A model generated the notes under the pieces. The model was not told where the DNA came from. It ran no database searches and worked only from the letters and a program-made list of their open reading frames with translations. Below, piece by piece: positions 1 to 42,686 of a stretch of DNA of 52,203 nt. Numbering within the stretch: the first letter of the stretch is position 1; every line of letters starts with the position of its first letter. The position numbers and the translations under genes are program-made. The stretch covers positions 1-52,203 of the forward strand of contig CAYTCD010000001.1 in NCBI GenBank assembly GCA_964436335.1, read 5' to 3'. This stretch comes from an uncultured Bacteroidaceae bacterium. Its GTDB lineage: Bacteria; Bacteroidota; Bacteroidia; Bacteroidales; P3.

Positions 1-704
1 CGGCCGTAAACCGGCTTCAGGATGCTACCGCCTACCCGTACTATCGGATATACTGTATCGCATATTGTTTTCTTCAGACCCGGAGTCGGTTCCACAGGCT
101 CTTCTGTACATGTTACCGTTGCCTTTACCGTTTCGCTCGTGTTGTCTAAAGCACGCTCTGTAGTGTACGTTATTTCACAGTCTGCATTTACTTCACGACA
201 ATTCGTCACCGTACTCTTACTCCGTTCATAAACAATACTCCACGAAGTACCGCCTTTCTTCAAAGTATATACGGTATCACAAATTGTAATCTTGGTATTA
301 CAGTCTATCTTTGGAATTACACGTTCCGAACTATTATCAAGCGAACGAACTACATCATAGCCAACAACCGAACAATTTTCTGCCAACTGTTGACAATTTT
401 CAACCGTATATTTACCTCTTATGAAAGTAGGATTCCATGTGGTTCCTCCCTTCGTTAAAGTATATATTGTATCACAAACAATTTTGGATTCAACGGGTTT
501 ATTGCCAGTACAATCCAATATCACTTTCACTGTATCGGTTTCACCATGAGCATCCAACGCATGTTCAGTGGCATTGATTACACATGCACTATCAACCTCC
601 CGGCAATTCACTAATTTTCCAGCATCCAAGCGTACCACAACCATTTTACCCAAACCTGCATCAAATTGTCTGGTTACCGCAAACACCGTATCGCAAACAA
701 ACTT
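1..704 (-). repeat. Four-Cys repeat modules of about 66-73 aa (at least 4 units) at the C-terminal-most visible part of the giant ORF
   Basis: Units begin at about 704 (KFVCDTVFAVTR..), 485 (KIVCDTIYTLTKGGTTWNPTF..), 284 (ICDTVYTLKKGGTSWSIVYE..) and 64 (ICDTVYPIVRVGG..). Each has the pattern CDT(V/I)(Y/F) ... NC ... C ... (D/T)C. GC is about 35-38 percent in the three 60-nt lines I counted (241-420), against about 50 percent at 1201-1260. Confidence 0.75.
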
Positions 705-3700
705 CTTGCCCTCGCCGGCTTCTTTGCATACGATATCCACTTTGTTCCAACGCAGGTATTCACGGTAGATATCAAGATCCTGATACTTGCCGTCGTATTC
801 AAGGTTGATATAGGGCTGGCTGAAGACACTGTCGCAGAAAGGTGAGATATTGATTGTATCGCGTTCTTTCTGCGTGCCTTGGAAAGGTATCACAAATGCA
901 TGGTAACGAGAGCTATCGGTATAGGTTTCGCTACGGTTATACACCGTATCGGCATAGGTAAAGCAATAGTCAACCGGATTGATGTGGCCGGTGCTGAAAT
1001 GCATCGTATCCGCGTAGCGCCATTCCACATAACTTACATTATCGGTGGTATCGGACTTGAGACCCACTTCGGTAATACAGTAGTCGCATACCGAGGTATC
1101 GTTGAGATAGAGTTCCCTTACATGAACGTTCAAGGTGGGATAACATTCGTGTTCACCGCCACGCAGATAGAGAACAAATCGGGTGTCTTTATTCACCACA
1201 ACAGGGAATATGCTGTCTTGACGGCAAATCTCAACCGTATCGGTGTGGTTGAACCACGGATACATGCAGGCCGAAGTGGCCGGTTCGGGTCCGCTTACAT
1301 AAACATCGAGGCTGGAGCCGGCAAGAATGGTGGTGTCGTAAACACTCAACTTGTAGATATTGCCGCCATAGGTCAGATGCAACGTATCGTAGTCCATACA
1401 GCCTTCCTCATCGTTCCATACGGTAAGATAGAAGGTCTTGTTTTCGGTTACGTTTGCCATAAACGCACTGTCGGTGCTCACCACATTGCCGTCTGCACTA
1501 TCAATCCATTGGTAACGGCTTATCGCTTTAGAAACGTTCTTTACACCTACACCAACCGTTGTGGCTTCACAAACATTGGTATCGCCCGTAGTTTCCACCA
1601 ACAGCCTTTCTTTTACCTTAACCGTTACCGTATCACGGTCAGATCCGCCGCAACTTACCGTTCCTCTCAAGGGATAGATGGTATAGGTGGTGGTTTTGGT
1701 CGGAGCAAGTTTCACATTGTTGCCGTTGGCCACATTTTTGCCCGTACCCAGTTCGAACCAACGCGGCACGGTGCTTCCCGGATTGGCCACTTCGATATAG
1801 GCGGTGTCGTGGTAGCAAATTTCAACCGTATCGGGTATGACACGCGGCGAACCTACAAATTGAACGGTATAGTTCAATGTGGCCATACAGCCTTCTTGGT
1901 TCCAGGCCTTCACGGTGTCGTGGTAAATCACATTGGTATCGCCACCGGGGTTGAGATAGAGCAGACCCACTGCATTGTGTACTGTATCGGAAGTGGAAGT
2001 ATTCCATTCGTAATGGTCCACATTGGTGCCTTTTATGGTAAGTTTCACCTGCGCGTCAGAAGCACCCAGACATTGGGAGGCTCCTTGTACGGAAACATCT
2101 ATCTTGGGCGAGAAGGTCAGCTGAACCGTATCGCTCACTTCCACATGGGCACATTCATCCACACCACGGACGGTGAATATGGCGTAGGCCACCCCTCCAT
2201 TGGCCAACAAGGAAGCGGAGGGATAGAAGAAGGAACTTATCGCATTGTAATTGCTCATCCGGCTGCCTTGCGGATCGGGTACGGTATCGATAATTGTCCA
2301 TTGACAAGCGGAGTACCTGCCTATGCCGGGATAGGCAAGACGCACGGAGGTAAGGGTACAGGAATACACGTCTTCGATAGGCGTGAGATGCGGTTTGGGT
2401 ACCACGCGGATAAAGGCAGAATCGCTATAGACGCAACGGTTGTTGGAGGTCGTAACCTTGTAGTGGTAATGGTTGGTGGTATCCACAGCGGTAATAACCG
2501 AATATACATCGGGCATCACGCTGCTTCCGGCCGTATTGCCTGTCCACTGAATCATATAACCCTGACCTATCAGACCATAGAAATCCACCAACGATATCCG
2601 CGATCCTTCGCACACGGTGGTGTCGCGCAAAATCGGGAGACTATCCCAAACAATGATGGGAATGTCTTGCTGACGGGTATAAGTACAGCCCAATTGGTTG
2701 GTTACCGTAACGCTTACATTGGCCAAAGAATCTCTGGTTCCGGCAACAACGCTGATTATGGAGTCTGTTCCGGTTACCGTACCTAAGGAAGCGGTGCTCA
2801 ACTGCCAACTATAGGTATAGGTTGCCTGACTGTTCTTGCCGGCATTGGAATGAATCGAATCCAAGCCTATGGTAATCGGCTGCATGGCGCAGGCATCACC
2901 CTCGGCAATGATGAAACGCAAGTCGGGTTCAGGCAGCACGGAAATGCGGATGGTGTCGGTATGCTGGCAACCTATGTAGGATGTTCCCGTAACGGTAAGC
3001 AAGGTATCGTTGACAAACGGTCCGGCCGTTATCTTGGAGGCGGCCTTGGTACCGGTGTTCACACTAAGACCGTTCAACACATAACTCTTGGTGTTTTCGG
3101 GCATATCAAGCGCTATGCTGCTATTGTGGCATATCAGGGTATCGGCGCCCAAATCAAAGCTGTAATGACTGCGCACCACGGTAAACTTAACCGGAGGATC
3201 GCTCCAGCACATGGCCTGCGTGGCCACATAACCGAAGTAAACGGTGGTGTCTTTTTCGGGCAACAAGGTAAGGCCTCTCTGGGCGTTGTAGTCGCCCGAA
3301 TCTATCGGAAGGCCTTCCGGAGTTGTCCAACGGTAGGAAACTATCGGCGGGAACACCAACTCTCCGGTGAGCAAGGGCAACGAAATGCTGTCGCCCACGC
3401 AGATAACCGTATCGGCGGGAGTATTCGGACTCACAACAAAACTGTGTTCCACCGTAATGTTCACCACCGTATCGTTGCTACAGCCAGCCACACCGATAAT
3501 GCGTACCGGAATAGCTGTATCCTGCCATGCCGTTACGTTGAAGGTATTGTTGGAAAGACCGTCACTTACAGTGCTGTCGGGCCAGATATAGGTATTCAGA
3601 CCCGTGTTGTCGGTAATTTCGATTTGCGCCGTCTGTCCGGGACACATGCTCAAGGCGTTTTCTCCATTGGGATAGTGTACCTTGAACTTGCCTTTGGCCA

Positions 3701-27700: not shown

Positions 27701-30700
27701 CCTTGTCGGTAAAGAGTTCCACGGTATAGGTGCGGTTCTGGTAAGGTTGTGCGATTACCTTGGAACGATAAGACTTGGCATCGGCCCCTACGGTGATATC
27801 GTCTTTGGGCATCCAGGAAATGCTGTCGATATTTTTACCATTTACCGCAAGTTGAACCGGTGTGCCCGGACATACCGAAGTATCGGGTGTGATGGAGGTG
27901 AGGGTGGGCACATCAAAGATATGGATACCCACCTTAGGTGTATTCACCGGATTTTGGAGCGGGCAGGCGTAACCTACCGTTACCTCGCAATAAATATGGC
28001 TGCCATCGGCGGGCAATACATCATAATAGGCAGAACCGTCAAAGCGGGCATCATGCGCATCGTTCACAAACCAACGGTATTGTCTTACCGAACCGGTGTA
28101 GGCATCGGGTTTCACACCCAGACGGAAGCCCTTGGTGGCATTGGCGCAAAGATTGGTGTCGCCCGTAATGACCGGATGACTCAACATGCGTTTGTTCACC
28201 GTAACGGTGATTGTCTTGAACACCGAATCCACACCATCGGAAACCTTGACGCGATAGTAGGTAACCCCTACGGGACTTACGGTGGAGATATGGCTGGTGT
28301 CTTTGGAAACAAAAGCGGTATTGACCTTGGTGTTGGTGTCTTTAGGCTGAGCGGTCCAACTAAAGGTATATTCGCCCGTACCGCCATAGGGATAAACTGG
28401 CAGAAGCACCGTGTCGTTTTCACAAACCACTATGTTCTGGTTGCCATCCACTCTAAGCGGACCACCCTTGATGGAAACCACTTTGGTATCGGTGGCCTGA
28501 CATCCGTTTACATTGGTTGCGGTAAGGGTAAAGGTATAGCGGCTCTTGACGGGAATGGTCTGGGCATAGAGCGAATCCGCGCGGCCGGAAATCAGATTGG
28601 CGGGTGTCCAGCTGTAAATCATTTCAGTGCTTTGACCCGAATCCACTCCAGTGGTAATCAACCGTCCTTGCAAAGTACCCTGACCGTTGTATTCCACAAT
28701 GGTATCCACACCGGCATCTATCCGGGGATTGTGCCATGCCTTCACCACAAGGGTATCGGTAGGTTCGGGTGTAAAGGCCGGACAAGCATAACCGGTGGTA
28801 ATCAAAGCCGACACCTTCATGCCGTCGGAAACAGCCGTCTTGTAGGTGGTTGATTTTCCGCTCTGTTTGCTTTGGCCGTTCACCAACCAGTTTATAGTAG
28901 CCTGAGCGGCGAGATTGTTCTGGGTGCGAAGCCCGAATTCAACCTGTGTACCTTCGCAGACAGGAAGCGCGGTGGCACTGTAAACTGTACCGTAGGCATG
29001 CTGCAGATGATTGATATACAAAGTTGCATCCCCATATAGATAAGAGGGAGTGTTGGAATAAACCGTATCGCGTTTACCCGTTTTTTCGGTAACACCGCTT
29101 ATCTGGCAACGATAACGGTATTGATTCATACCGTAATTGAGCGGCGTGATATCGGGATTGGTGGCCGCATTCTTACCTATATACAATACCGAGGTGAATT
29201 CACCGCTCTGAACTATCGAATACGGGTTGGGTCTGGGCAGACTGCTGATATCAATCCAATTGCCATCGCCCTGATCCACTTGCCAATCAAAAGAAAGATA
29301 GGCACCGGAAGCCTTAACGGTAAAGGAAGCCTCGGAACTGTCGCAGACCGTTGTGGATTGAGGATGGTTGAGAACACGTACATCGGTAAACACGTTCACC
29401 CAAACCGTATCGGACACTTCGCAACGCCAAGGTTCGGTGAGCTTTACCAGATAGCGGGTAGAGGTACGGGGCGAAGCCGTTACATCGGTACCCGTACAGG
29501 TGTTGAGCGAAGCGCAAGGTGTCCAGGTATAGGTGGCTTCTTCGCTACCGCCCGTAGCCCACAGATCCACACTTTCACCCAAATTGATATCCTGATCGTC
29601 TATTACATTGATAACAGGTTCGGTCTTTACTTCAAAATGAATCACATTCGAACGTTTGGGACGGCAGTCCACACATTTGATGTCCGAAATAAGGAGAAGT
29701 TCAATGCTGTCGCCGTTACGCAACGAATCCAGACGGATATAGTCTTGCGAACCGGAAAGAATGGTATCGTTGTTGAGCAACCAGATAAATACAGGTCTGC
29801 TTCCCTGGTTCACATAAGAAGAACTGATACGTACCGGATAGCCTTCACAGATAGTCAGATCGCTGAGGCTTTGGTCGATATCGGAAGCGATGGTAACGTT
29901 TACCGTTTTCTTTTCATCCACCGCGGCGCGGATAGGTTTGGAAACATAGGGGTTCGCATCCACACATTCCTCGGAAGAATAAACGGCCACCGTGATGTTG
30001 AAACCATCATCCACACCGGTAAGCAAGGCCACGGAATCGAAATCCTGATCTTCAATCGGATTTCCGTTCACACGCCATTCAAAGCGGGCACTGTCGCCCC
30101 AGCCGTAACCGGACACCTTGAACACGGCCGTATCGCCGTAACACATTCTTTCAGCAGGCATGTTGGGCACCACCGAGTCGATAACGGCGAACACCTTGAC
30201 CGGAATACGGGGTGTAACAACTGCCGTAGCCACCGGAAGATCGTCTGAACCGGCACAACCCGGATCGATCGTAACAGTATAGACCCCTCCCATTTTGGTC
30301 GTGAAACCAGGGCGGAAAGTATTCATTTCGCGCGAGGTCCATCCATCGGGTCCCCTCCACGAATAAGTGGCCGAAGGTACGCTGTCTGTCTTAAGGAAGA
30401 GCGTATCGCCGATACAGATCATCGAATCGGCATACACATGATAACGCGTGGTGTCGCAAGGAACACCGCGCTTGGCAAAACCGTCGGATACACCGCCCGT
30501 ATAAAGCGGATAGAATAGACCCTCTACCTGCATGGTGATATAGCCATCGCCGATACCGCCCATATAAGGCCAAGGCTTAGGTTTGGGCATATCGATAGAG
30601 AAATGGCCATCGCCGATACCGCCTATATATTGCGGGGCCGGACGAGCGGGCATAGCGGCCGTATAATGACCGTCTGCAATACCCCCAAGATAATTGGCAG

Positions 30701-31754
30701 GCGGACGAATCGGCATGGCAACCGTATGATGACCATCCCCGATACCGCCCACAAAAGGAGGTCCGGGAAGATTAGGCATGGAGGCCGAATGATGACCGTC
30801 TCCGATACCGCCCACATAGTTGGCAGGTGGACGAATCGGCATGGACCCCGTATGATGACCGTCTCCGATACCGCCCACATAGTTGGCAGGCGGACGAACC
30901 GGCATGGACCCCGTAATATGGCCATCGCCGATACCCCCTAAATAAGTAGGCTTATAGAACATCGGCGTTCCGGCCGTACTATGACCATCGCCGATACCGC
31001 CTAAATAAGTGGGTTTATAGAACATCGGCGTTCCGGCCGTGCTATGACCATCGCCGATACCGCCTAAATAAGTGGGTTTATAGAACATCGGCGTTCCGGC
31101 TGTGGTATGTCCGTCACCGATACCCCCTAAATAGGTGGGTTTATACATTATCGGCATGGATGCTGTACTATGACCATCTCCGATACCGCCCAAGAAAGTA
31201 GGTTTATGGACAATCAGCATGGTCACCGTGCTATGACCATCCCCAATACCCCCCAGATAGGTGGGTTTATGGATAATCGGCATCGCCGCTGCACTATGGT
31301 GATCTCCGATACCGCCCTTATACGGAGCATTCCGTTTGGGCATATCGGAAGAAGCCACCGCCATACCGCTTCCTCCCACTGCATTGGGCCAGGCGATACG
31401 GTTGGCCGTGCGGAAAGGCGCTACATCAAAGCCGGCCGTATCCACCCCATTGGGTATATAGGTCGGGTTCGCCTCTATATCCACATCCACAGGAGATGCA
31501 GGCACTATATCCAGTTCCTGCGGAGAAAGCAAGGGTTCGTCTAAGGTGATTTCGGAGAAAACAGATTCCGGAACAGGTGTTGAAACAGAAAGATAGGGCA
31601 AAACCACAGGAAGGGAAGCGGCCTCAGCCGGGCTTTCCCGATCGGAACGCGAAGCAGAAAGCCGTGCCACGGTAGCGCCGCCCACGGCAACGCCCGCCAA
31701 CAGCAGACCCGCTATCACAATGTTCCGTATGTTTAATCTTCCCGAAGTTTTCAA
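1..31754 (-). CDS. Giant secreted cell-surface repeat protein (SprB-repeat / Ig-like multidomain adhesin), at least 10,584 codons, 3' end beyond the left window edge
   Basis: The reverse frame whose codons begin on coordinates equal to 2 mod 3 is open from the TAA at 31767-31769 down to coordinate 3. Hand translation stays in one phase (codon GGC at 31316 and codon CTG at 20 are both 2 mod 3). No listed reverse ORF inside 1-31750 is in this phase, and an internal stop would have produced a listed long ORF; it is unlisted because no stop lies in the window. The translation gives repeated 75-90 aa modules with conserved Cys, Gly-Asp and Trp positions, for example DDLRYNWYRNG (about 11330) and HYQWQITADGGATWTDIAGD (about 10500). 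The preferred start is TTG 31754, giving MKTSGRLNIRNIVIAGLLLAGVAVGGATVA. Alternatives are GTG 31718 and the first in-frame ATG at 31364. Confidence 0.9.
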   Translation of the reverse strand, partial: MKTSGRLNIRNIVIAGLLLAGVAVGGATVARLSASRSDRESPAEAASLPVVLPYLSVSTPVPESVFSEITLDEPLLSPQELDIVPASPVDVDIEANPTYIPNGVDTAGFDVAPFRTANRIAWPNAVGGSGMAVASSDMPKRNAPYKGGIGDHHSAAAMPIIHKPTYLGGIGDGHSTVTMLIVHKPTFLGGIGDGHSTASMPIMYKPTYLGGIGDGHTTAGTPMFYKPTYLGGIGDGHSTAGTPMFYKPTYLGGIGDGHSTAGTPMFYKPTYLGGIGDGHITGSMPVRPPANYVGGIGDGHHTGSMPIRPPANYVGGIGDGHHSASMPNLPGPPFVGGIGDGHHTVAMPIRPPANYLGGIADGHYTAAMPARPAPQYIGGIGDGHFSIDMPKPKPWPYMGGIGDGYITMQVEGLFYPLYTGGVSDGFAKRGVPCDTTRYHVYADSMICIGDTLFLKTDSVPSATYSWRGPDGWTSREMNTFRPGFTTKMGGVYTVTIDPGCAGSDDLPVATAVVTPRIPVKVFAVIDSVVPNMPAERMCYGDTAVFKVSGYGWGDSARFEWRVNGNPIEDQDFDSVALLTGVDDGFNITVAVYSSEECVDANPYVSKPIRAAVDEKKTVNVTIASDIDQSLSDLTICEGYPVRISSSYVNQGSRPVFIWLLNNDTILSGSQDYIRLDSLRNGDSIELLLISDIKCVDCRPKRSNVIHFEVKTEPVINVIDDQDINLGESVDLWATGGSEEATYTWTPCASLNTCTGTDVTASPRTSTRYLVKLTEPWRCEVSDTVWVNVFTDVRVLNHPQSTTVCDSSEASFTVKASGAYLSFDWQVDQGDGNWIDISSLPRPNPYSIVQSGEFTSVLYIGKNAATNPDITPLNYGMNQYRYRCQISGVTEKTGKRDTVYSNTPSYLYGDATLYINHLQHAYGTVYSATALPVCEGTQVEFGLRTQNNLAAQATINWLVNGQSKQSGKSTTYKTAVSDGMKVSALITTGYACPAFTPEPTDTLVVKAWHNPRIDAGVDTIVEYNGQGTLQGRLITTGVDSGQSTEMIYSWTPANLISGRADSLYAQTIPVKSRYTFTLTATNVNGCQATDTKVVSIKGGPLRVDGNQNIVVCENDTVLLPVYPYGGTGEYTFSWTAQPKDTNTKVNTAFVSKDTSHISTVSPVGVTYYRVKVSDGVDSVFKTITVTVNKRMLSHPVITGDTNLCANATKGFRLGVKPDAYTGSVRQYRWFVNDAHDARFDGSAYYDVLPADGSHIYCEVTVGYACPLQNPVNTPKVGIHIFDVPTLTSITPDTSVCPGTPVQLAVNGKNIDSISWMPKDDITVGADAKSYRSKVIAQPYQNRTYTVELFTDKGCKETGKVHISVLPQTVATTQNPNIFACENGEARFPVRESGHKLVYDWQKYDAASSTWKSITEAGDKYGDLNTAQLVVYNVSRTENGDKYRLHLSGTCAPDSTSAPMTLNVIDSVYFDMVLVDTPSCQGDVAKVKFITNLTGLQKKVDIVVTGYTTRRFTTRDSVFTLNPVQPGDRIQAFLTPQGIIAQCVNPNPMPSQIIDLGVKESPVISQRSTNPKACATSDGSITLSASRGYTPYTYYFNDTVSQNIINGLPAGMYVAQVIDNNGCKSEKIEISLRDPNAPANPVVTNAGAYCNDKPLPEYLLLRPSIKKGEVRWYSDYTCTNLVHTGDSLAFPTEPGRYIYYLYQIFGNCKSATVKVEVYVGTVPVIDYIDAVVPSSCDRSDGIISIYATGDTTLEYSAFVPQKFGVNPDFIDIPNGTYPLAVRTITGCYAYDTVDLYAFNTPDAPPMLSSDTVYCAGSPRQPLQVKPYRGGVVTWFDDLTLQHAVYKGNPYNINTLATGTYGFSAVESVGTCNSKPSRVNVRILPSINTGVASNVFGCPSGTVTVKALHYDDVNYTWIDPSGMTVSTTDSMTVNVPDSPETYTLHAAREVEGYTCDIVQYVTVQYTTDPVYVDTVVCVGDTVDLTVAAGIDFTWADNSTETSYRVVATAAKQTVKAWISFADGCRMQYVFTVTGRQGTPSYVSIDKNFDLYCTGEKRQLKAKLSNASVPVTLQWYHDYVDIDGATSQILDISDLEPGDYMYVLTATAKEVCTKPRTTADTVRFHVYETPVVNAGPDIDSLSYGEKTVIGLQADVVYGIEPYTYLWKGTGIGSDNSRITVGSERIYNTTVVTLTATDSAGCSASDDLKITVVGGPFRITMDKPYSAVIKDNTICLGDTVLLHVNAAGGSGNYAYSWKELTTGSVLGTKDSLYVAPVSKTQYEVTVINLTGGVSTSADTLRAKVEIGIDLPPVAGYITTPDTTMCADTAYTIKLNAYRGQKIVWEQSIDTVMWNTLSGSADSNRIKGSASTTYYRATVHNGVCPVDVSPILKVKVYEPISNQITGPENTLCPEAEDIRITGNTVVSGGDGTYTYQWQYSASNNASAFLPAPGDTGSASYTWSGSIDYTRYFRRVVYSDGCPFISSVVTVAVYDDSHIGRINGENYVCIDSIGYMSASNTKMETYLWQVASDTLAKPVDWQDIAGAVSSSYNTDPVNDTLHYRVIGSKNGCLPDTTPVFTIIPTEPLPTSVSIVVDTTAACIGDWLVFKVDSVTYPGNKPVYTWFVNGAPLTLPLKQAKDTLAYASKDGRTFYVRSLKPGDSVQCGMASSIGCVTEPLAMSNAIAPTIYLPLVTMAEDDLTFCRRDTVALHADSAIYHTWYYKGTSDKAMLPLVYAPHMLDSYDSVVKVSPIEETTYYVEGIDRHGCKGLDSVTLTPEPLMSVVTPDTLLCAGSKLALRAIPVSTRGVTYSWIEVPSDSTTPTTLPTQLNRNTLTGIAPLDSLTYYIYTINTPRCTFSDTIRVRVEQNTTPTVRIDYTGDVTGDTAHIIECQKVENFFHYISEYGGSAPKYTWYFNGEKVGTDSLFSDHYPYMVDQSTIYVEMESAKRCVTTRTVKSAQMKIHYVKMPEALVSINSNKGLTVCPNEELVLFQAHAPSYDTGIFQWYVKYADSSKFEYVYTGDSLVSRFSTGDQVYCIYVAQDSCIKYSPKRSNTLTFQNYKLWKPTVDIIRLDAGREGKGDTVCEMTEVLFEARLGDAGSDYRFTWLVDGKEAGTPNSLKLTYSDFLADAGDTYRQSTVTARLETKHTCAVPSNINVDDTVVYVRPRKLLGVTIGQDMLMACNSLKKEPVVFTHVYGPLTVSGNAIANNCNNTDWNTGAVSQQTITGNGSVSAKATSVWSYNYAMFGLTSRTEITHYSHINYAVYFENGNLAVYESGVRIGAFGSYTASDELTVEIADSVIRYLKNGVVFYTSQQRDSVGTYRAGFSIYSTCNHCGHAYHDVYSAINSATIEYRASGIVFGSVVVEPPVNTPDYDWKVNGVSFEFGNGKDSLIDHKYRFEENDVVSLLVKSNDVCMERPAAESNPITVRIPDPGDFLRLDDTAYVCLGDSVWLVAGGAISYEWTLAVDCDPDAIHDSSLLVWPKKTTTYRVTGANQDGCTDFKRIVVVVFELPKPNLGPDREVCIGDSLYFSVTAGKEPDSVTNWIYRTEWNFITEGTVYDTLLSQSGNRDSIVERIGKVALPLDSELDNAIRFVAQKSGTLVATMINKLSDCYATDTMKLSVYPLPEVNFTDDTLFVCISKNLDLKDSAYDAAGKSAYRYTWTPASRLTKGTANGSYMIFNSPDTGLYTYFVDVVTPKGCHSYDTVLILNIKQELTAVSTLNRRTVCEGENPVFILEGDWWLPDATATLYRNNKVAGTYTVGREGKSQCDTVTYTGPIANGDVFYFNIVSKNTCLVQKQVNSNRDTLRVVYNTHLASVPDSLCAGSPLVLRAQPVQDSDVHYTWTAFRSERSVDTTIYFEHRNIGSDTNTITVSMPRSPSYFCVEANGGSGCVTRDTVFVGVVKADTLWAELEQELDSCQSPSPQQPAWRSSGSLVYLNNGQIIRDGSTGSGWQELESSTVLSGNFLMRYSVSGKEAPAMVGINYQGRAHWHHSWWYGNWWCNYDADHAFYLSWDNGKPYLQIYERGGQVGTYGEWSAGDILFIIREGGYVSYYKNEVLLRRVKERSPEQPFTPEVSLHTPGTAIDAIHYVELPQIKLSNRAGSISAPMSHKWYRNGKLVSSDSALYSRTIGFIDGDTVVYQVSGMTKCDGLQTVSDTLVIEAPMGYHPVFLTLEHDGQKCENSGYMVRSTVVNRTPSIPDSALRYNWYRGNMLVAAGVRADSMYFDSVGVKEFVWAQVYVDSSYAICAFNSNHNPVPSPKLYLPVTPNGVMGVNIDVYPGEKVCLLSEVRFNATQVISGMSDAGLSPVTEWYLNDKLVFTGQTYVTDSLQDGDSVYAIITASAETSCLDTNRKQTRVVHMEVMPAPILEAYQDTVVKYNSLVDIWSMVTDNWEPGLTYEWYPAFDVQAPWKFTDSAVRVRSKIDHYYTVQAKNKIGCAGNQAGVHVEVLICPQFVLRGSGTDACAGDTSYIYLQVQGFRPYTNLYIWQISHDGGNTWSDVEIDGTEFAQKVGQNDVTLVIPQTKAEYDKAYTMFRCLAVATDSRLDCDTVYSHELYLDVVEYTKPTTHITGDTVVCRNTPVSFTAKGASNPGDYYQWFRGGRMIGGSGNTLYLDSVEGQEKITLVLTVRNNQNRCVDRMRVSDTLEIMANPKPYLTMSPDTVINKGDDALVYGHVEGGQAPYKFHWNGLPSTTLRTPDQDSSLTRNQYYTTRYTLTVTDSNGCSNKGSVMVRVADTCLIQPAIYGPNTICLDSIGTFEAFITGGLANSDLRLSWTSVPPIDTTILMATGYNYNVRAFKPGTYKITLTVSDSSEVVTKVCPLSQRAFSVSKDVTVYPAKHLSVKIDSLMPVCTGTSSDLSAKAYMDGELTAIPVFYTWYSMTDSAISPRMLQKGLYNTCHITNWELSQYIIVEAVLGGDECETGIVAYDTLRPVVNLTPSLVEARGLYIKNQEPCRFDTAAIGLTALFGQADTMGLSYSIDGGKTWSAGNYFKPVDEGTYVPAVKAANGCSFVADYTIHISLPKPKHLPNLQVSGDGGYCTHSPMDALIAYNGDEEAIIGWYADTAGQIALSEGAIGQDSIRLVLPDSVRSTVGTYTYYAIQQAGNCKSEPVELTIDIRERDTVGGFHLRYVQRYNCNKDGQPLMVDVTAEHDTINVTGEYRWYTIPASTVESTEKSALVSVSDSIRVYASFTYINTCSNKEFTLWSDTIPVNVVVLYNSIGEGGAICVGDSAKAENTLAYLIESDEFSYRWEAFYPDTTQENGGMWNVAPGKVDDKDYTVHYSDLLPVEGSTNGRRELRIRRIKSVDTCSNSSNELLYYYEIPAEPSIELSVPEVCTGKTVTAIVTGKNLGDNPLVNWYLNDSLVKTSGNLNENLGVVDSGDLVRVVVYPDYTKVPCPLIDSVMAESVASVTSAIAGKIWIEIADTLFCGTENTFTAHYNTEYSDNPRYRWYHNGVLVPAANNRASYTATVAEGDSVSVTVFAANECPASDSASSPKVGVGRKAKAVSAWAEVENATAAGDSLVLKAYGGDTYRWFDNDTRDVRGLSVTGGEFLFTVTVSKAGFCDTVLTVNTKIPSATLSLSTVCLGWETTGTISGENLGPRPSFDWYVNGVFVGHTDSVYTATVGMLNHEDSVSVVVHVDLAGMGVPQGAAPDSLVLYGIAEVHDRIEGKVWIESSDTLFCKPENTFTARYNVEYSDNPRYRWYHNGVLVPAANNGASYTATVAEGDSISVTVFASNNCPASDSANSEPVAVYKGRSHKVSVNAVDTLLCFNDTMVLRAEGGINYRWDDGSTDSIRRVVATNNKTIYTVTVQGEGFCDTTLQVSVAAHKFPSNTAPARRSIILCGNDTARLAVDLDPGLKVLWSTGDTTTTVDVKVPYRKKDTVFYLNYTDQYGCTYGPDSVRVHTLDSRPLSFTSSSIGLPDSITWRETFDAVTTVEPADKDSIYYVWYINGTYWKSGYGMKDFLSLKGSDFPLSSPYVFQVILQDNGYCNLNRQDTLTDTIKVLQKRFAGINIQSNSTIEGDTLRVCVSENTRMFAATSNAGPVAADGSHKWYIEWFLNDKMVHVGDTVNFGHLTVGSKIYAVLHVDTTEYNYAANDPVTSRVLYVVSIPQPKVEVTLSLKVDTICSTQDYEVRANVVNGGENPQYRWYVNGFLVNVGDEKGNSVPLDAPYLSLLNIKQLSMEEGINYDIVCWVKSSLPCVADSVRNKDLATLVIFPSDTLKVVITPTIDTACLYENGDVVVNMHAEVYGQAKGFNVKDPSLQWYIDGKPIAGATDKDLHYVTRNLTGDELFSVRAFSKYRCTSNSSIVSERSKVFLYPFRAEAGPDDTVYNYADYTVHGDTVTGGVPHWKTGGDGYFLNADTLHATYVLGAGDRKADGIYLYLEVNNKFGCYAIDSMYLSISHCEDYTWQTDLQAMTVCHDQAVTMANKVVAKPTATDAVQTARYMLIALPAGTYPADTLAVIDSVAFGWSGIVDTTRTLVLTGSINSMDCLYTDTIPVTVLPKNEIKVMLTQDGADTCQQHEAKHVNWEIDGSNMPLHWNLNGGTLNHVHCSNMQRVFTSNYGEANTTMRYVATGKERTSTVGFSYEGNNTGNNDTRLDYGFYFTEGRVGVYNNGLVGEYLPGETYLAGDVFTVIRRDHKVYFYVDQRNSHKLMQVIDEPETGWGRRVRFAIGSYDVGSSYNDIVYVNEPAVKVSDSIEFGPLTGKLSYKWWMNDTVVSTASTWDAERFNLQHGDRLKLEVTGITACDTVRATDSITVSKTIDYEPIYVTLVRDSAGTCENDAFTFTATVHNLPAEISQDDLRYNWYRNGQALVKGTKNNVYVIDSVKIGDYVYAEAYITGTTCVLNTENNPAPSHRVTFNLRENKPLEITLVKKTKMDPAICPGSEIHLQAIVNNGGRYEISWYVNDSLYAKGENLNLVPDQDVHIHALVKAYNEDVCLDTTLVSSDTVVVRQALVPVVRAWADTVVNRGSRVALRGEVIENTDAAVRYAWTSNCGGVANASQLNTEITAHNSCMYYLRAYNSLGCVSEPDTVEVNVYDCPSLNSIGVPASVCEGDSATLNITMNGYRPGTNHYQWQITADGGATWTDIAGDARFTATTTATGSLLGISKTDFALDGRNDVRFRCVVTATDSNLMFCPSVITSEIRLTVDTAARQIPTIKLTGPTGICATSTVMSAIYTAQLTPGYEVMWKQNGSGVLEYDGNDHRRGYSVRNGDKVIGVLYGASPCVNRLQISDTLTVTLYQQPTLTAWKDTTVAFNTAAELNALLSNGTGTATYSWTPADKVVNAGTASTATVNLTKSTLFTVSAADSLSCAAEAKVRVIVSDTCLRSVDLVGPESVCVNKTATFTGLVTGGGVLGKYDISWKVSPALDNNDGEEEMNNGGVPVLSFSNATPGDYTVTFTVTDTSAAVRRYCYENGIVLSASKTLHIPVPDTLKVSLAADKDSVCDGTAIILAANATLNSVVAGDAVNYAWYRIRDGRTSYIGSTSPTLRVPDAENNDRYYVEISTKEGCQTDEKVRSNEVPVTVYPVPAPLKPYQVYAHSHLSCVDDTAYIRIDANGATGLLFSIDSGATWQADPMFRNLSEGTYHVMVKGEEGCEAEGVQTVHIEVQPDYRYESLHLSADTVAACVGQALVDVKAYKTDDLGGYIAWFADSTLKKVLAVSAEDADTSSFAPAASIGKIPGLHTFYAARISGECHGKPVPVNYMVSSCGVILEPALDTICPDEEADFYILADAVTRDNAQSWIYQYSADGSFNDAVDVSAAGKIDTIAVSRAGYYRIAYTALSGSVTYSNTARLVVGSYAKLTGKVFVEYPAGSNAVAMCPGGTAGVLVGNVGAGYTIYWPDSSTGNIYRRTSDTTFDVSLKVVSLVGGCAVDTSVTVNVLSRNFVKLGASDTTICLLADETAELVLPRISDSGNVFPPYTNFIWTLNGTTVVAGKYNEQTLNQYPALRVRPQEGVNHYVARAYSLRDCPSVTDTFTVTVHRLVFNLAQDSMAVCEGKTVQLNLPAADSLSINSTVRTAFTSPLQVGPITGDSNLIITLYKGICQSADTLRLHHIPADSLNASLQADVTDCSKTISSAMVWKPGAMGYDAATGTLSHSGSNGWQTNFAADSLRTAAEINYTVSGKEGAMVIGLEYAGAATGLWSKPYSIYLSANGYGDAKLFYLYENGWEVNYSAAGQYRAGDVFTIRRDNAHISYYLNGQLLRSVEEPQAKASVRMLVSASSYNRGGVIDAMQVANASSAKIGTSLYHRYRNLRYQWYVNGIPVSQDSILDTDRHMLVNGDTVVWKVTSYSFCDTLVSADTLVIEGASTYPSIGLNLQQTTQSLCKGESATFKATLTRLPAGLDPSTVRYNWYVNGQQVRKGVIASTYTRQNVQPGDYVYAEAYVWGKYCILNHEDNPACSNIIYLNVDTAETTHFGIEAQPDAEICAGESITFTAMPEGLQHMPQISWYVNGLKVSEGVSLTLQNPADGAEVYAVAIVDADENCAGGDTLTSQSLTLTVHPVPVVDAGTYVKVDRGTRVDLNGQVISGATSVMKYNWAPRTEISGTASTYVVAQNSRTYTFTAVNAYGCEGQDTVSVAVEECPYLAGQSALNAPAVCPGDSLDFTLSVGGYIPAVKAYQWQVSADGTTYSDVSEPLYVNKGTRLHIPSVSLAMNGNYYRAVIIPDLNQTTGCDTLYSLPFRLSVNTDVRNTDLSLSGPATVCADAQEAVYTLTAATRAGDRFFWYLNGILIAQDVKTLRLDPQQLGHGGLLKVEWQTAEDACPAGIRLTDSMEVNVSSPLWITAGNDTVVVKNAQAMLDAWLTGGTAPYVYHWNASVIDPDAASTLTGPMTATTLFTVTGTDANGCEAQAEVQVTVADSCIENVKIARKESEESQQICQDSLVEFKVLVSGGMPGNYTIAWNVTPSLPQTDFVPSQNNGQLWLRPSVAGTYTVTVEVRDTSALAAVHCTAEQLVQRDEITLEVKAKNRLEVRLVQPDSVCADDADALSLQAKAFVNGVETTDVSFHWYRIRGGMVHDLGLGGNIFNPSDKLDDDNYFVNVTATGECLENATVASDTVNSVIYPMPPAIQPSNVIYTPARLCSNDTASIEISVPMYTPSASLSRWAQTLQYSIDGGTTWQASALFKPLPEQSPYQIVIKNQYGCWNDKNKIAVQRSPQALDAWLEAGPNDTIMENETYRVHGDTVVAQGAPQWTTSGSGTFDNANILHPIYTPSAADYAAGSVMLYLSVNSTNECPLKDSLQLFIIRCDSYYIERDKSDSLACTNSPLTLRAALRSANGVSVPSAIYQWNQRRINSFINIHADTGYSSEWTYQHERDYTYYLVVTTENGCVLNDTIRIKMQEPPMAKGKFKVHYPNGENALSMCPGQTAQIEITDNTGLNTYIWPDSTVSDGLSNNTFNVTAWQDTAIPVRIIGVAGCSNDTVVNITVEHSFVVSPNTPADTVICVGDSISLPLLTGELVFPPIVSYRWTTPEGLPIDSGDYNAQRGLTLLPEKDTTVYFGYVATQAMCWSDPPVKFTVVRSHYSFDLGADTLICHNSSIALDMPENTKSYVLNGLSVNTGTKAASKITAGPFVNDTLLTVTGTSYIGCQHTDTIRISVLPEPDLRFIIAEGDACAMQPITIGLDSIHSNAGKNSQATYTYSWQLSTASLGTVTGTDSIISVVAGTRDSLANVSVTVTNQLGCTYTRQQDIPIIVWDSLPILRDTTVCEGSRISLVDFYGLIGQGYMIQWTGNTAGSSVMPDVYSVITAVDTTNHYHYKVTTSNNRCVYSDSAFIRVVPKPHLTPIEDVYSCTLTSVRLAYPGIGRYSACQWTIIDTVPDPQGSRMSNYNAISSFFYPSASLLANGGVAYAIFTVRGVDECAHVEVSDTVQLTFSPKIDVSVQGASQCLGASDAQVKLTIKGTNVDHYEWNTSTSDTVHNAVGLLYLNPGGDTNVIYHDTVKAWNQEGCMATLNYTVQFVGSPRVIPDTVEICYHDTAYIEVANPGSTVPRWFELGTGKNVANGNNVKLAPTKTTTYTIYPLRGTVSCGGSDRDTVTVKVKERLLVETTGDTNVCEATTVGVGVKNVSKAISRYQWIDSADGNVVSTDSAFMANVTENKTFYLTVWNDEEGCMDYDTLHLTYGGNIYKLSVYDTTILAGSSLDVYVSGPEPATSACMYPWFNHTDTVEICRQDSIFPVVVNKDTRFVLYLRGGEHECYPTLNVHVRELYLNDTSVCDYCITEVGLKSDTTDNVSYVEWRYADTMHFSTGHINPVDYCFTYADTVYNRSETYTDSSRYHAFVIPFQGTQKERDTINISPFCDSVFSQPYINLEYDGKYQDLDIYREYLRWNKVDIVCKEAGEGKKFVCDTVFAVTRQFDAGLGKMVVVRLDAGKLVNCREVDSACVINATEHALDAHGETDTVKVILDCTGNKPVESKIVCDTIYTLTKGGTTWNPTFIRGKYTVENCQQLAENCSVVGYDVVRSLDNSSERVIPKIDCNTKITICDTVYTLKKGGTSWSIVYERSKSTVTNCREVNADCEITYTTERALDNTSETVKATVTCTEEPVEPTPGLKKTICDTVYPIVRVGGSILKPVYG
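4272..4490 (-). repeat. SprB-type repeat module (SIDGG.TW variant)
   Basis: Translation: LCSNDTASIEISVPMYTPSASLSRWAQTLQYSIDGGTTWQASALFKPLPEQSPYQIVIKNQYGCWNDKNKIAV. Confidence 0.5.
7027..7527 (-). other. Non-Ig insert module, copy 4 of 4
   Basis: Translation includes NGWQTNFAADSLRTAAEINYTVSGKEGAMVIGLEYAG...FYLYENGWEVNYSAAGQYRAGDVFTIRRDNAHISYYLNGQLLRSVEE. Confidence 0.55.
8913..9107 (-). repeat. SprB-type repeat module (SIDSG.TW variant)
   Basis: Translation: SCVDDTAYIRIDANGATGLLFSIDSGATWQADPMFRNLSEGTYHVMVKGEEGCEAEGVQTVHIEV. Confidence 0.5.
11677..12197 (-). other. Non-Ig insert module, copy 3 of 4
   Basis: Translation includes MRYVATGKERTSTVGFSYEGNNTGNNDTRLDYGFYFTEGRVGVYNNGLVGEYLPGETYLAGDVFTVIRRDHKVYFYVDQRNSHKLMQVIDE. 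Confidence 0.55.
14533..14756 (-). repeat. Internal segmental duplication, copy B
   Basis: The peptide is GKVWIESSDTLFCKPENTFTARYNVEYSDNPRYRWYHNGVLVPAANNGASYTATVAEGDSISVTVFASNNCPASDS. The duplication is also visible in the antisense shadow ORF 14046..15719, where AFGYRGCIR...SVARIIAVF appears twice. Confidence 0.85.
15295..15518 (-). repeat. Internal segmental duplication, copy A
   Basis: These 224 nt align without indels to 14533-14756, with 31 mismatches by my count (about 86 percent identity). The offset is exactly 762 nt (254 codons). The peptide is GKIWIEIADTLFCGTENTFTAHYNTEYSDNPRYRWYHNGVLVPAANNRASYTATVAEGDSVSVTVFAANECPASDS. Confidence 0.85.
16707..16907 (-). repeat. SprB-type repeat module (SIDGG.TW variant)
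   Basis: Translation: PCRFDTAAIGLTALFGQADTMGLSYSIDGGKTWSAGNYFKPVDEGTYVPAVKAANGCSFVADYTIHI. Confidence 0.5.
19488..20015 (-). other. Non-Ig insert module, copy 2 of 4
   Basis: Translation includes GSGWQELESSTVLSGNFLMRYSVSGKEAPAMVGINYQG...YLSWDNGKPYLQIYERGGQVGTYGEWSAGDILFIIREGGYVSYYKNEVLLRRVKE. Confidence 0.55.
21712..22168 (-). other. Non-Ig insert module, copy 1 of 4 (lectin / LamG-like beta-sandwich suspected)
   Basis: Translation includes NCNNTDWNTGAVSQQTITGNGSVSAKATSVWSYNYAMFGL...INYAVYFENGNLAVYESGVRIGAFGSYTASDELTVEIADSVIRYLKNGVVFYTSQQ. It is paralogous to the modules at 19488, 11677 and 7027. Confidence 0.55.
26370..26555 (-). repeat. SprB-type repeat module (divergent)
   Basis: Translation: SCDRSDGIISIYATGDTTLEYSAFVPQKFGVNPDFIDIPNGTYPLAVRTITGCYAYDTVDL. 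Confidence 0.5.
26865..27041 (-). repeat. SprB-type repeat module
   Basis: Translation: CATSDGSITLSASRGYTPYTYYFNDTVSQNIINGLPAGMYVAQVIDNNGCKSEKIEISL. This matches the remembered SprB-repeat pattern C..(S/N)DG.I......G..PY.Y.........L..G.Y.v.v.D.nGC. Confidence 0.6.
30435..31316 (-). repeat. 14 tandem in-frame 63-nt (21-aa) GGIGDGH repeats in the giant ORF
   Basis: Unit first codons (GGC/GGT) fall at 31316, 31253, 31190, 31127, 31064, 31001, 30938 ... 30497, exactly 63 nt apart (31001, 30623 and 30497 verified directly). Example units are GGIGDGHSTAGTPMFYKPTYL, GGIGDGHHTGSMPIRPPANYV and GGIGDGHFSIDMPKPKPWPYM; the last unit is degenerate (GGVSDGF...). Confidence 0.9.
31665..31754 (-). other. 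N-terminal signal peptide or signal-anchor of the giant protein
   Basis: A basic n-region (KTSGRLNIRN) is followed by a 19-residue hydrophobic stretch, IVIAGLLLAGVAVGGATVA, and then RLSAS. Whether it is cleaved cannot be judged by eye. Confidence 0.5.
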
Positions 31755-31802
31755 AACCTCAATTTTTTATATTATTCCGACCTGTCTCTAAACCATCGGA
31801 TA

Positions 31803-33488: not shown

Positions 33489-33519
33489 ATATGTGAACCG
33501 ATAGAATCGGTCCACATAT
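33489..33519 (-). promoter_or_regulatory. Intercistronic RNA hairpin between the two FGE-like genes
   Basis: ATATGTGAACCGAT-aga-ATCGGTCCACATAT forms a 14-bp stem with a 3-nt loop. The single A-C mismatch on the forward strand becomes a U-G wobble on the reverse-strand transcript. No clear U-tract follows. Confidence 0.4.
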
Positions 33520-35734: not shown

Positions 35735-35774
35735 AAATAAAAAAATGCGCACCCTTGCCCATACAAGGGTGCGC
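35735..35774 (-). terminator. Rho-independent terminator of the DUF3078-like gene
   Basis: On the reverse-strand RNA the sequence is GCGCACCCTTG-TATGGG-CAAGGGTGCGC, a perfect 11-bp GC-rich stem, followed by ATTTTTTTATTT. It starts 11 nt after the stop at 35785. Confidence 0.8.
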
Positions 35775-35784
35775 ATCGCATCAA

Positions 35785-42679: not shown

Positions 42680-42686
42680 CAAGTTA

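Follow-up and report, generated by a model that had tools for sequence, protein, structure and literature searches.

A reverse-strand gene of at least 10,584 codons in a metagenomic Bacteroidales contig, probably encoding a giant Ig-domain surface protein

The closest described systems to the locus reported here are large Bacteroidota proteins with Ig-like domains. SprB of Flavobacterium johnsoniae (6,497 aa) is a type B cargo of the T9SS and is encoded in the sprCDBF operon, where two accessory genes lie directly upstream of the SprB gene (PMC5879114). GhpA, the grappling hook of Aureispira, consists of 5,898 aa with 52 Ig-like repeats and forms a heptameric, glycosylated 240-nm T9SS fibre (bioRxiv 10.1101/2024.01.29.577165). 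Ig_7 ('CHU_C-associated') and PKD-like domains also occur in CHU_C / TIGR04131 cargo such as Hymenobacter WP_191004062.1 (4,596 aa). At the upper end of the size range, predicted bacterial proteins reach 85,804 aa, with giants of 10,000–85,804 aa in Omnitrophota and other phyla (bioRxiv 10.1101/2023.11.21.568195).

Six-frame translation of the window, the whole 52,203-nt stretch of DNA analysed here, yielded one reverse frame that runs without a stop from 31766 to 3 (10,588 codons), with an in-frame TAA directly upstream at 31767–31769.

3..31754, reverse strand: giant CDS, at least 10,584 codons from a conserved TTG, with the 3' end lost at the contig end

An earlier note on this DNA had proposed an uninterrupted reverse ORF of more than 31.7 kb and at least 10,584 codons, bounded by that TAA and open to the left edge, and both points agree with the translation, which gives exactly 10,584 codons from the TTG at 31754. 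Computed from the available sequence, the product has at least 10,584 aa, a mass of 1.155 MDa and a pI of 5.0. The note's description of a protein above 1.1 MDa that is still incomplete therefore stands, as the gene reaches the contig end, although little of it is likely to be missing. Its statement that the ORF is missing from the ORF track is correct only in the literal sense: the track omits ORFs that run off the end of the source (a two-stop rule), and the public gene call for the same scaffold already lists a partial product of 10,572 aa. The TTG and its context are kept in four orthologues (L013, L004, L022 and L014), and the alternative GTG at 31718, which is the start in the public call, reads ATA in L013.

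The window begins at position 1 of scaffold_78 (ENA assembly ERZ23499073), so the gene is cut by a true contig end and not by the window alone. Leftward extension was attempted in three ways. A scan of genome contigs found a sole relative whose contig stops 7 codons earlier, two scans of metagenome contigs gave no match, and a search for homologues of the last 1,000 aa returned a single partial protein that reaches 11 aa further. Four related assemblies break at the same spot in the gene. Complete orthologues of 9,654 and 10,624 aa, neither of which runs off a contig edge, suggest that only ~50–100 codons are missing here; short-read assemblies probably break at this distance before the gene end, which would account for the truncation.

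The available protein comprises an N-terminal head, a long rod and a C-terminal region, of which the head contains three elements.

31647..31754, reverse strand: predicted Sec signal peptide or signal anchor, MKTSGRLNIRN-IVIAGLLLAGVAVGGATVA-RLSA, with the cleavage mark before the next residue, S
31326..31646, reverse strand: Pro/Ser/Glu-rich linker of ~107 aa, read from the sequence; P0002 aligns there
30471..31325, reverse strand: GGIGDGH array of 14 tandem repeats, exactly 21 aa each, with a 63-nt DNA period

In this segment a positively charged n-region precedes a hydrophobic core of 19 aa, and an A-x-A-like site is the putative position of cleavage. The segment is kept in orthologues and, bar one borderline window, is the sole hydrophobic one in 10,588 residues. 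The GGIGDGH array has no match in Pfam at E ≤ 10 or in a PDB profile search, and repeats of this type (GGxGDG) recur in small proteins of Bacteroidota with a T9SS type A CTD at the end. An RTX giant adhesin secreted by a T1SS, of the LapA or SiiE type, would be expected to have nonapeptide GGxGxDxUx repeats close to its C-terminus and was rejected on account of the 21-aa period and N-terminal position of the array. Pfam analysis found no RTX match in the giant protein, and the 52,203-nt window encodes no T1SS genes.

The rod accounts for most of the protein and includes SprB-type repeats, four inserted modules and three super-repeats.

954..30476, reverse strand: array of ~100 divergent Ig/PKD-like beta-sandwich domains, ~95 aa each, Cys...Y-x-W...Cys
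26367..27089, reverse strand: two SprB-type repeats interspersed with an Ig_7 domain, C-x-x-x-DG-x-I ... G-x-Y ... GC
21762..22163, reverse strand: inserted non-Ig module 1, aa 3202–3335, outside all Ig-domain HMMs
19584..19946, reverse strand: inserted non-Ig module 2, aa 3941–4061, head of super-repeat A
11754..11987, reverse strand: inserted non-Ig module 3, aa 6594–6671, head of super-repeat B
7182..7547, reverse strand: inserted non-Ig module 4, aa 8074–8195, head of super-repeat C
16437..20069, reverse strand: super-repeat A, aa ~3900–5110
8637..12269, reverse strand: super-repeat B, aa ~6500–7710
3927..7604, reverse strand: super-repeat C, aa ~8055–9280

Iterated HMMs started from seven different seeds converged on 69–89 copies and covered 89% of the protein, and identity between internal domains is 10–35%. 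Pfam analysis recognised Ig_7, Ig_3, PKD-type and BiPBP_C domains. Ig_7 (PF19081) matches five stretches in total, with scores of 79.8, 66.5 and 41.4 bits (cut-off 27.3); one match lies at aa 1803–1886. SprB-type motif copies were seen by eye at aa 1560–1640 and 1733–1800, and the Pfam SprB repeat (PF13573) gave one match at 20.1 bits, which is under its 28-bit cut-off. A structure predicted for the Ig-like unit from a single-domain alignment is an all-beta sandwich of moderate confidence (pLDDT 74), whose nearest PDB folds are PKD, FN3 and GhpA Ig-like domains (9fls_A), all non-significant (best E = 0.07).

Inserted module 1 is homologous to modules 2–4, and none of the four has a match in Pfam at E ≤ 10 or in a PDB profile search. 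Our impression that they resemble LamG/ConA-type jelly-rolls is offered only as a lead. Self-BLASTP showed that super-repeat A is 27–35% identical to B and C in runs of ~300 aa, and the three super-repeats are ancient segmental duplications of 1.2–1.5 thousand aa each. The Bacteroidota O-glycosylation sequon D-[ST]-[AILVMT] occurs 241 times, compared with 51 ± 7 times in shuffled sequences; because of this 4.7-fold enrichment, the protein is probably O-glycosylated.

The remainder of the available protein differs from the rod.

3..953, reverse strand: C-terminal region in the window, aa 10272–10588, a non-Ig stretch followed by Cys-rich units

Three Cys-rich units of ~73 aa (ICDT[VI]Y..KGG..W....NC....C) are followed by a fourth that is cut by the contig end, and these units match nothing in Pfam at E ≤ 10 or in a PDB profile search. 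The last 317 aa in the window contain no CHU_C and no Por_Secre_tail domain (Pfam, E ≤ 10). Among the domain models that the earlier note proposed to run, Ig-like and PKD-type domains are present and the SprB repeat falls below threshold, whereas a T9SS type B sorting domain (PF13585 / TIGR04131) is absent from the available 10,588 aa, with the true C-terminus lying beyond the contig. The host organism does have a T9SS, as indicated by a neighbouring 1,269-aa cargo protein (36980–40789) that ends in a Por_Secre_tail / TIGR04183 domain scoring above cut-offs; T9SS machinery genes are absent from the window. The central 1,200 aa of the giant have 13,492 protein matches, and the named proteins in the best 10 of these are annotated as 'gliding motility-associated C-terminal domain-containing protein'. 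Three of the relatives tested end in Pfam CHU_C. Because its own C-terminus is missing, we can only infer a T9SS route for the giant protein.

This leaves room for a fibre that lacks a canonical T9SS domain altogether, in which the Cys-rich 73-aa units anchor or sort the protein, perhaps with the FGE-fold partners described below. The complete orthologues (10,624 and 9,654 aa) have about the length that the fragment in the window would reach once its last 73-aa unit is completed, and a gene end ~50 codons past the window, as in the 10,624-aa orthologue, may leave no room for a canonical CTD. The lack of a CTD in the available C-terminal 317 aa and the strict conservation of the partner pair point the same way. 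However, a CTD of 75–90 aa would still fit into 50–150 further residues, and all characterised Bacteroidota fibres of such build use one, so we consider a fibre of this kind unlikely.

The giant gene is the last of a three-gene unit.

35744..35777, reverse strand: terminator-like hairpin with a 15-bp stem and T-run, ending the preceding DUF3078 gene
33552..35444, reverse strand: partner gene 1, secreted, 630 aa, an FGE-sulfatase-fold domain preceded by an N-terminal beta-sandwich
31803..33443, reverse strand: partner gene 2, secreted FGE-sulfatase-fold protein, a 546-aa ORF (532 aa in the public call)

The hairpin marks the start of this unit. Partner 2 is paralogous to partner 1 (30% identity, E = 6e-63) and sits upstream of the giant gene, 48 nt from its start. 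Partner 1 has 4,148 homologues and always precedes partner 2 and the giant ORF in 9 further lineages. A sigma-70-type promoter scan performed no better than on shuffled sequences, no TAnnTTTG box is present upstream of the triad, and no tRNA or Rfam families were found within the window. The partners match Pfam FGE-sulfatase (PF03781) at 41.6 and 23.8 bits, in an alignment that spans only profile positions 35–190 of 255. A search of the partner profile against the PDB retrieved FGEs at E = 6.5e-7, and FGEs are also the nearest PDB folds to the predicted model of partner 1 (pLDDT 86.7, Foldseek). FGEs, such as the human enzyme, carry a catalytic cysteine pair near the C-terminus, and none of the cysteines is invariant among 58 partner family members, so this pair is lacking. 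GldJ, GldK and PorK, lipoproteins of the T9SS hub and the gliding track, are likewise FGE-fold proteins. The partners matched 0 NCBIfam families at E ≤ 0.01, including GldJ/GldK (TIGR03524 / TIGR03525-type), PorK is absent from their PDB matches, and neither has a lipobox cysteine after the signal sequence. At a guess, they could be non-enzymatic accessory proteins for anchoring, assembly or export.

Given this arrangement, the giant could be the SprB orthologue of a gliding Bacteroidales bacterium, an adhesin on a GldJ/K/N track whose partners are SprC/SprD counterparts or track proteins. The giant Ig-repeat build with SprB-type repeats and Ig_7 domains is consistent with this proposal, as are the two accessory genes directly upstream, as in sprCDBF (PMC5879114), and the FGE-type fold of GldJ, GldK and PorK (proteins described in PMC12635249). 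On the other hand, the partners match no GldJ/GldK NCBIfam model, neither a type B CTD nor sprF is found in the available sequence (the contig ends first, and none of the related loci retrieved includes the DNA downstream of the giant), and no gld genes are present within the window. The host lineage also appears to be gut-type Bacteroidales, in which, to our knowledge, gliding is not established. We regard orthology with SprB as improbable.

The analysis establishes the ORF, its coding status, its architecture, its place as third member of a conserved triad and the shadow nature of the forward ORFs, and we consider it fairly likely that the product is a Sec-exported cell-surface fibre or adhesin. 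In this model, the protein would be exported by means of its Sec signal peptide, and the linker and 14 GGIGDGH repeats would form a head that is followed by the rod of ~100 Ig/PKD-like domains and then by the Cys-rich C-terminal region. The four inserted modules that interrupt the rod are possibly ligand-binding, and the two FGE-fold genes that precede the giant would serve accessory roles. We infer its surface location and adhesin role, and a very long cell-surface fibre or adhesin is the most likely product. By analogy with GhpA, an extended fibre would be ~0.4 micrometre in length. A more ambitious version, which we regard as decidedly unlikely, is that the triad is an unrecognised surface-appendage system of gut-type Bacteroidales in which GldJ/GldK-like scaffolds anchor or move a ~0.4-micrometre fibre ending in Cys-rich units in place of a known T9SS sorting domain. 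If true, this would represent a new mode of sorting or anchoring, or else a supposedly non-motile lineage would possess a cryptic apparatus for motility or capture. The triad fibres considered in this version range from 9.6 to at least 13.7 thousand aa.

The long ORF could also be an assembly artefact in which shorter paralogous repeat genes were collapsed or chimerically joined. The source is a short-read metagenome assembly, the four related assemblies break at one gene position, and in P0002 and L017, which come from two further assemblies, the 63-nt array at the N-terminus contains frameshifts. However, long DNA repeats are nearly absent from the gene, where those of at least 40 nt are limited to the N-terminal array of 63-nt units and a single pair of 242 nt (84% identity). 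Orthologues in at least 8 lineages are colinear with the giant over ~2,700 aa at 37–76% identity, and independent assemblies of different species stay colinear and open over 2,700–4,324 codons. The complete orthologues of similar length (L004 and L022, compared through the first ~8 kb), which sit inside contigs 476 kb and 88 kb long, also argue against an artefact. The scarcity of long DNA repeats and the colinear independent assemblies led us to reject a collapsed-repeat explanation, and an artefact of any such kind is very improbable. One partial relative of the giant has at least 13,742 aa.

Comparison with an orthologous locus (L001) established that the reverse frame is coding. There, 4,324 codons stay open at 72% amino acid identity to the giant, with a dN/dS of 0.17 in every 500-codon block and nucleotide identities of 0.80, 0.85 and 0.56 at the three codon positions, the third being lowest. 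In its other frames, L001 has 88 and 241 stops over the 4,324 codons, so a stop-free run of 10,588 codons cannot be due to chance. A pseudogene was also considered and rejected. Inside 1–31750 there are nine forward ORFs of 400 aa or more (starting at 846, 5064, 6864, 13833, 17661, 19416, 22506, 27393 and 29040), each of which begins at 0 mod 3 and is therefore codon-aligned antisense of the giant frame; they are long because the sense codons TTA, CTA and TCA are depleted three-fold. Antisense-frame stop positions are not conserved, with 0 shared between orthologues out of 11 and 8. The idea that the true genes are these forward ORFs, the longest of which has 1,573 aa, and that the reverse frame is open by compositional accident draws on the choice of forward or antisense ORFs by gene callers in three related contigs but is almost certainly wrong, given the excess of substitutions at the reverse-frame third position, the low dN/dS in that frame, the unshared antisense stops and the codon depletion that explains every long forward ORF. 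The earlier note was thus right to read the forward ORFs as shadows of a single real giant repeat-domain gene, which conservation, dN/dS, colinear orthologues and domain content all bear out. Its warning that pipelines could be misled by these shadows is realised in public contigs L005, L011 and L017, where gene callers took the antisense ORFs instead of the giant.

If this interpretation is correct, uncultured Bacteroidales widely carry a conserved and strongly constrained gene that makes up ~1% of a typical genome. Its product, a surface fibre about twice as large as SprB or GhpA, would probably dominate contact of the cell with mucus, food particles, phages and other cells, and the strictly linked FGE-fold pair would provide a handle on the assembly and anchoring of very large cargo. 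There is also a practical warning, as short-read assemblies reproducibly break within the locus and antisense 'hypothetical proteins' replaced the giant in the three related contigs examined. The family is therefore under-counted and partly mis-annotated in public catalogues.

Like SprB, the giant is a very large, Sec-exported Bacteroidota protein with Ig-like repeats and SprB-type motifs, encoded downstream of two accessory genes. Unlike SprB, it is ~1.6 times longer, as the earlier size comparison had anticipated, and its Pfam SprB match is sub-threshold. The genes upstream are FGE-fold paralogues that can be likened to SprC and SprD by position alone, and a literature search found no description of SprC/SprD domain content. 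We know of no N-terminal GGIGDGH repeats or Cys-rich C-terminal units in SprB. The partners share with GldJ, GldK and PorK an FGE-sulfatase-type fold without evident catalysis, export to the envelope and a place beside T9SS-type cargo, but differ in having no NCBIfam match, no obvious lipobox and an extra N-terminal beta-sandwich. Similarities to GhpA include a signal peptide, a distinct N-terminal head and an Ig-like string rich in Cys and glycosylation sites, whereas the giant has about twice as many domains, a different head and no PorP or PorE genes visible in the window. CHU_C cargo provides the best named matches to its central 1,200 aa, but at ~30% identity and in individual domains only; these proteins are 2,000–7,400 aa long, and their CHU_C end is unseen in the giant's fragment. 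With the Omnitrophota giants it shares membership of the class of at least 10,000 aa, assemblies that fragment within the gene and calls truncated at contig ends, while those proteins belong to another phylum, are several times longer and have other domains and another proposed role (cell-wall degradation or predation). A place among the largest bacterial proteins, as first suggested, is therefore justified in that this size class is rare, but needs to be set against described proteins of up to 85,804 aa and a relative of its own with at least 13,742 aa. The giant is a member of the SprB/GhpA-like class that is large but not unprecedented.

Six-frame translation of the window gave a stop-free reverse-strand frame of 10,588 codons from 31766 to 3, bounded upstream by a TAA (31767-31769). 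Counted from a TTG at 31754, this giant ORF contains 10,584 codons, matching the earlier note, which had described an uninterrupted reverse ORF of at least that length from this position to the left edge. Its estimate of a still incomplete protein above 1.1 MDa also holds: the product computed from the TTG, with the 3' end absent, has 10,584 aa, a mass of 1.155 MDa and a pI of 5.0, and the frame is open at the contig end. The window represents positions 1-52,203 of scaffold_78 (139,439 bp; ENA assembly ERZ23499073, sample SAMEA7724145) and begins at scaffold position 1, so the ORF runs off a genuine contig end. The same note had reported the ORF as missing from the ORF track; it is indeed absent there, solely because the track omits ORFs that run off an end, and the public gene call of scaffold_78 already includes it as a partial product of 10,572 aa that begins at GTG 31718. 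We take TTG 31754 as the start because it is conserved in orthologues and GTG 31718 is ATA in one of them (L013): the called starts of four homologous loci in public contigs (L004, L022, L013 and L014) are TTGs homologous to 31754, and L013 also keeps its context (AAAAAATTGAGGTTTTGAAAACTTCGGGAAGA). The original observation is confirmed and its interpretation supported, with the caveats set out here.

The giant ORF is almost certainly a real gene. Residue 1 is the first codon of the stop-free frame, which makes the TTG residue 5. A homologous locus in an uncultured Bacteroidales MAG (L001, CAMWNM010000001.1) is colinear with residues 6252-10577 at 72% amino-acid identity and has no stops in 4,324 codons of the giant frame; the other two forward frames have 88 and 241. 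Nei-Gojobori comparison with this locus gave a dN of 0.19, a dS of 1.09 and a dN/dS of 0.17 (0.15-0.24 in every 500-codon block), with identities of 0.80, 0.85 and 0.56 at codon positions 1, 2 and 3. The giant ORFs of seven further loci from different samples are colinear with the N-terminal ~2,700 residues at 37-76% identity. An assembly artefact is unlikely: among DNA repeats, only a 63-nt N-terminal array (30540-31357) and a single 242-nt pair, 84% identical, reach 40 nt, and the internal protein repeats are only 10-35% identical, leaving nothing for an assembler to collapse. Furthermore, more distant orthologues are complete within contigs of 476 kb (L004, GCA_023667315.1; 10,624 aa) and 88 kb (L022; 9,654 aa).

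The forward ORFs in this region are shadows of the giant. All forward ORFs of at least 400 aa within 1-31750 start at coordinates 0 mod 3 and each is therefore codon-aligned antisense to the giant frame, as previously proposed. Sense TTA, CTA and TCA codons become stops when the codon-aligned antisense strand is read, and there are only 42 of these among the 10,588 codons (1 per 252), approximately threefold more rarely than in neighbouring genes (1 per 83), with 1 per 540 codons in the L001 frame. This scarcity explains the length of the antisense ORFs (up to 1,573 aa in the window and 2,157 aa in the homologous locus L005), while the absence of any antisense stop common to L001 and the window means that their boundaries are not conserved. 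The warning that such shadows invite mis-annotation was well founded, as strings of antisense genes (172-1,841 aa each) are recorded in L005, L011 and L017 where the sense frame is open for over 2,500 codons. L012, identical in sequence, is correctly called as a sense product of at least 13,742 aa. The following antisense calls displace the giant sense ORF wholly or partly, with the sense frame open:

L005: 13524-21854
L011: 14341-21779
L017: 14197-21959
L013: 13924-14643

The predicted protein is built as follows:

Residues 5-40: signal peptide or signal anchor; no other segment of the protein is strongly hydrophobic
Residues 41-147: Pro/Ser/Glu-rich linker
Residues 148-432 (30471-31325, reverse strand): 14 strict 21-aa repeats with GGIGDGH
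Residues 431-10271: continuous array of ~95-aa domains
Residues 3202-3335 (21762-22163, reverse strand): non-Ig module 1
Residues 3941-4061 (19584-19946, reverse strand): non-Ig module 2
Residues 6594-6671 (11754-11987, reverse strand): non-Ig module 3
Residues 8074-8195 (7182-7547, reverse strand): non-Ig module 4
Residues ~3900-5110, 6500-7710 and 8055-9280: three super-repeats of 1.2-1.5 thousand aa
Residues 10272-10588: non-Ig stretch, then Cys-rich ~73-aa units (ICDTVY..KGG..W..NC..C), the fourth cut by the contig end

No Pfam model matches the GGIGDGH array. This repeat also forms, as GGxGDG[HFWY] with a period of 18-22 aa and 5-8 copies, the N-terminal halves of many ~300-350-aa Bacteroidota proteins (P0003-P0032) that end in a type IX secretion system (T9SS) type A C-terminal sorting domain (CTD). 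Frameshifts were seen in the N-terminal repeat region of one homologous protein (P0002) and of L017. HMMs iterated from seven different seeds in the main array each converged on 69-89 copies and jointly cover 89% of the giant, with a consensus featuring a Cys near the start, a central Y-x-W and a Cys near the end. Among Pfam families, the array matches Ig_7 ('CHU_C-associated') in five stretches with scores of up to 79.8 bits, and also Ig_3, I-set, BiPBP_C and PKD-type domains. When a single domain was modelled with AlphaFold on an alignment of 84 internal copies, the result was an all-beta sandwich (pLDDT 74). The PDB folds nearest to this model are PKD and FN3 domains and part of GhpA, the grappling-hook protein of Aureispira (TM-scores 0.5-0.66, with E-values that are not significant). 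The protein contains 241 copies of D-[ST]-[AILVMT], the O-glycosylation sequon of Bacteroidota, versus 51 +/- 7 in shuffled sequence; these often fall in the conserved C-x-G-D-[ST]-[AILV] motif with which the Ig-like domains begin. The four modules that interrupt the array are mutually homologous (~80-135 aa), share the signature Y-x-[FIV]-Y-[LF] ... Y-E-N-G ... AGD-V-F-T-I ... Y-Y-x-N-G and have no Pfam or PDB sequence match; they may resemble lectin-type jelly-rolls. Three of the four head the ancient super-repeats.

The giant breaks off at a recurrent position. Coming from independent short-read assemblies of related species, the window, L001, L013 and P0001 (a protein from the L001 species, identical over 493 aa) all stop within ~20 codons of each other, where the fourth Cys-rich unit begins. 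A second clade behaves likewise: L011 and L012, which represent a single species in two samples, both stop ~13,742-13,757 codons in. The terminal 400 nt have no further copy in the window. The shared break could be caused by tandem units that are nearly identical, by a 3' end present in several copies or by an invertible segment. If the giant is colinear with the 10,624-aa orthologue of L004, only ~50-100 codons would be absent, which could complete one 73-aa unit or hold a 75-90-aa CTD, but hardly both.

Two genes precede the giant on the same strand, with intergenic gaps of 108 and 48 nt, and this three-gene unit has the following setting:

31803-33443, reverse strand: partner 2, 546 aa
33552-35444, reverse strand: partner 1, 630 aa
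35744-35777: strong terminator-like hairpin that closes the DUF3078 gene, after which the three-gene unit begins
36980-40789, forward strand: 1,269-aa T9SS type A cargo with CARDB (weak), CBM_4_9 / choice-of-anchor J and a type A CTD

The partners are paralogues (30% identical, E=6e-63), each with a signal peptide, a mature N-terminus of NNI[RQ]I, an N-terminal beta-sandwich and a domain with the sulfatase-modifying formylglycine-generating enzyme (FGE) fold. The 630-aa partner had 4,148 homologues among the candidates scored, and its model (pLDDT 86.7) best matches FGEs in the PDB. The 58 family members compared share no invariant cysteine, and the Pfam FGE match ends before the part of the profile that we take, from human FGE, to hold the catalytic Cys pair. 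No NCBIfam model, including those for GldJ and GldK, matches either protein, and the family's sole annotation is 'SUMF1/EgtB/PvdO family nonheme iron enzyme'. By likeness to the FGE-related GldJ/GldK/PorK scaffolds, we hypothesize that the pair may be non-enzymatic accessory, anchoring or assembly proteins. Nine further lineages sampled show the same order, FGE-like (~590-650 aa), FGE-like (~530-560 aa), giant ORF, even where genes further upstream vary; two distant partner homologues (L010 and L016) lack a giant. In L016 (Bacteroidia MAG FACS1894153, BNXA01000001.1), five further products with FGE-sulfatase matches, one faint, follow in succession, interrupted by one 634-aa gene with no match. 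A 14-bp hairpin with a weak T-tract (33489-33519, reverse strand) lies in the 108-nt gap and could be an attenuator or mRNA-stabilising element.

The rest of the window holds ordinary envelope and housekeeping genes (NAD kinase, DUF6089, UppS, BamA, two Skp/OmpH, epimerase, helicase and decarboxylase), with no tRNAs or Rfam RNAs. The 1,269-aa cargo gene is divergent from the DUF3078 gene, a position conserved in L013. The mechanical ORFs for DUF6089 (41777-42679, forward) and UppS (42549-43442, forward, GTG) overlap by 131 nt, a first-start-codon artefact given that UppS begins further downstream in the public call (238 aa).

The giant is most likely a very long fibre or adhesin of the cell surface, exported by Sec. 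It most probably crosses the outer membrane by type IX secretion, since a T9SS cargo is encoded next door, its N-terminal GGxGDG repeat is common to type A cargo, and it shares its domain families with 'gliding motility-associated C-terminal domain' proteins. Among named proteins, these give the best matches to the central 1,200 aa, and Pfam CHU_C (a type B CTD) lies at the end of three that were tested. In addition, no Bacteroidota proteins of this build have been characterised other than GhpA and the Flavobacterium johnsoniae gliding adhesin SprB, and both are T9SS cargo. Taken as a whole, with surface location and T9SS route included, we consider this explanation probable. Fragments and complete orthologues are already public as 'hypothetical protein'. 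Unexplained features that merit follow-up include the partner pair and its conservation, the recurrent break in assemblies, the C-terminus, and the GGxGDG repeat and inserted modules that lack models.

An earlier placement among the largest bacterial proteins stands insofar as the giant belongs to the rare class of at least 10,000 aa, but it is far below the largest predicted, which reach 85,804 aa (bioRxiv 10.1101/2023.11.21.568195). The giant is not established as an SprB family member, as the Pfam SprB repeat match is sub-threshold, with two SprB-type motifs discernible by eye at residues 1560-1800. The giant probably works like SprB and GhpA, and at 10,584 aa or more it exceeds both (6,497 and 5,898 aa), in line with the earlier claim for SprB. 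As GhpA packs 52 Ig-like repeats and a hook into 240 nm (bioRxiv 10.1101/2024.01.29.577165), the ~100 domains of the giant would span roughly 0.4 micrometre.
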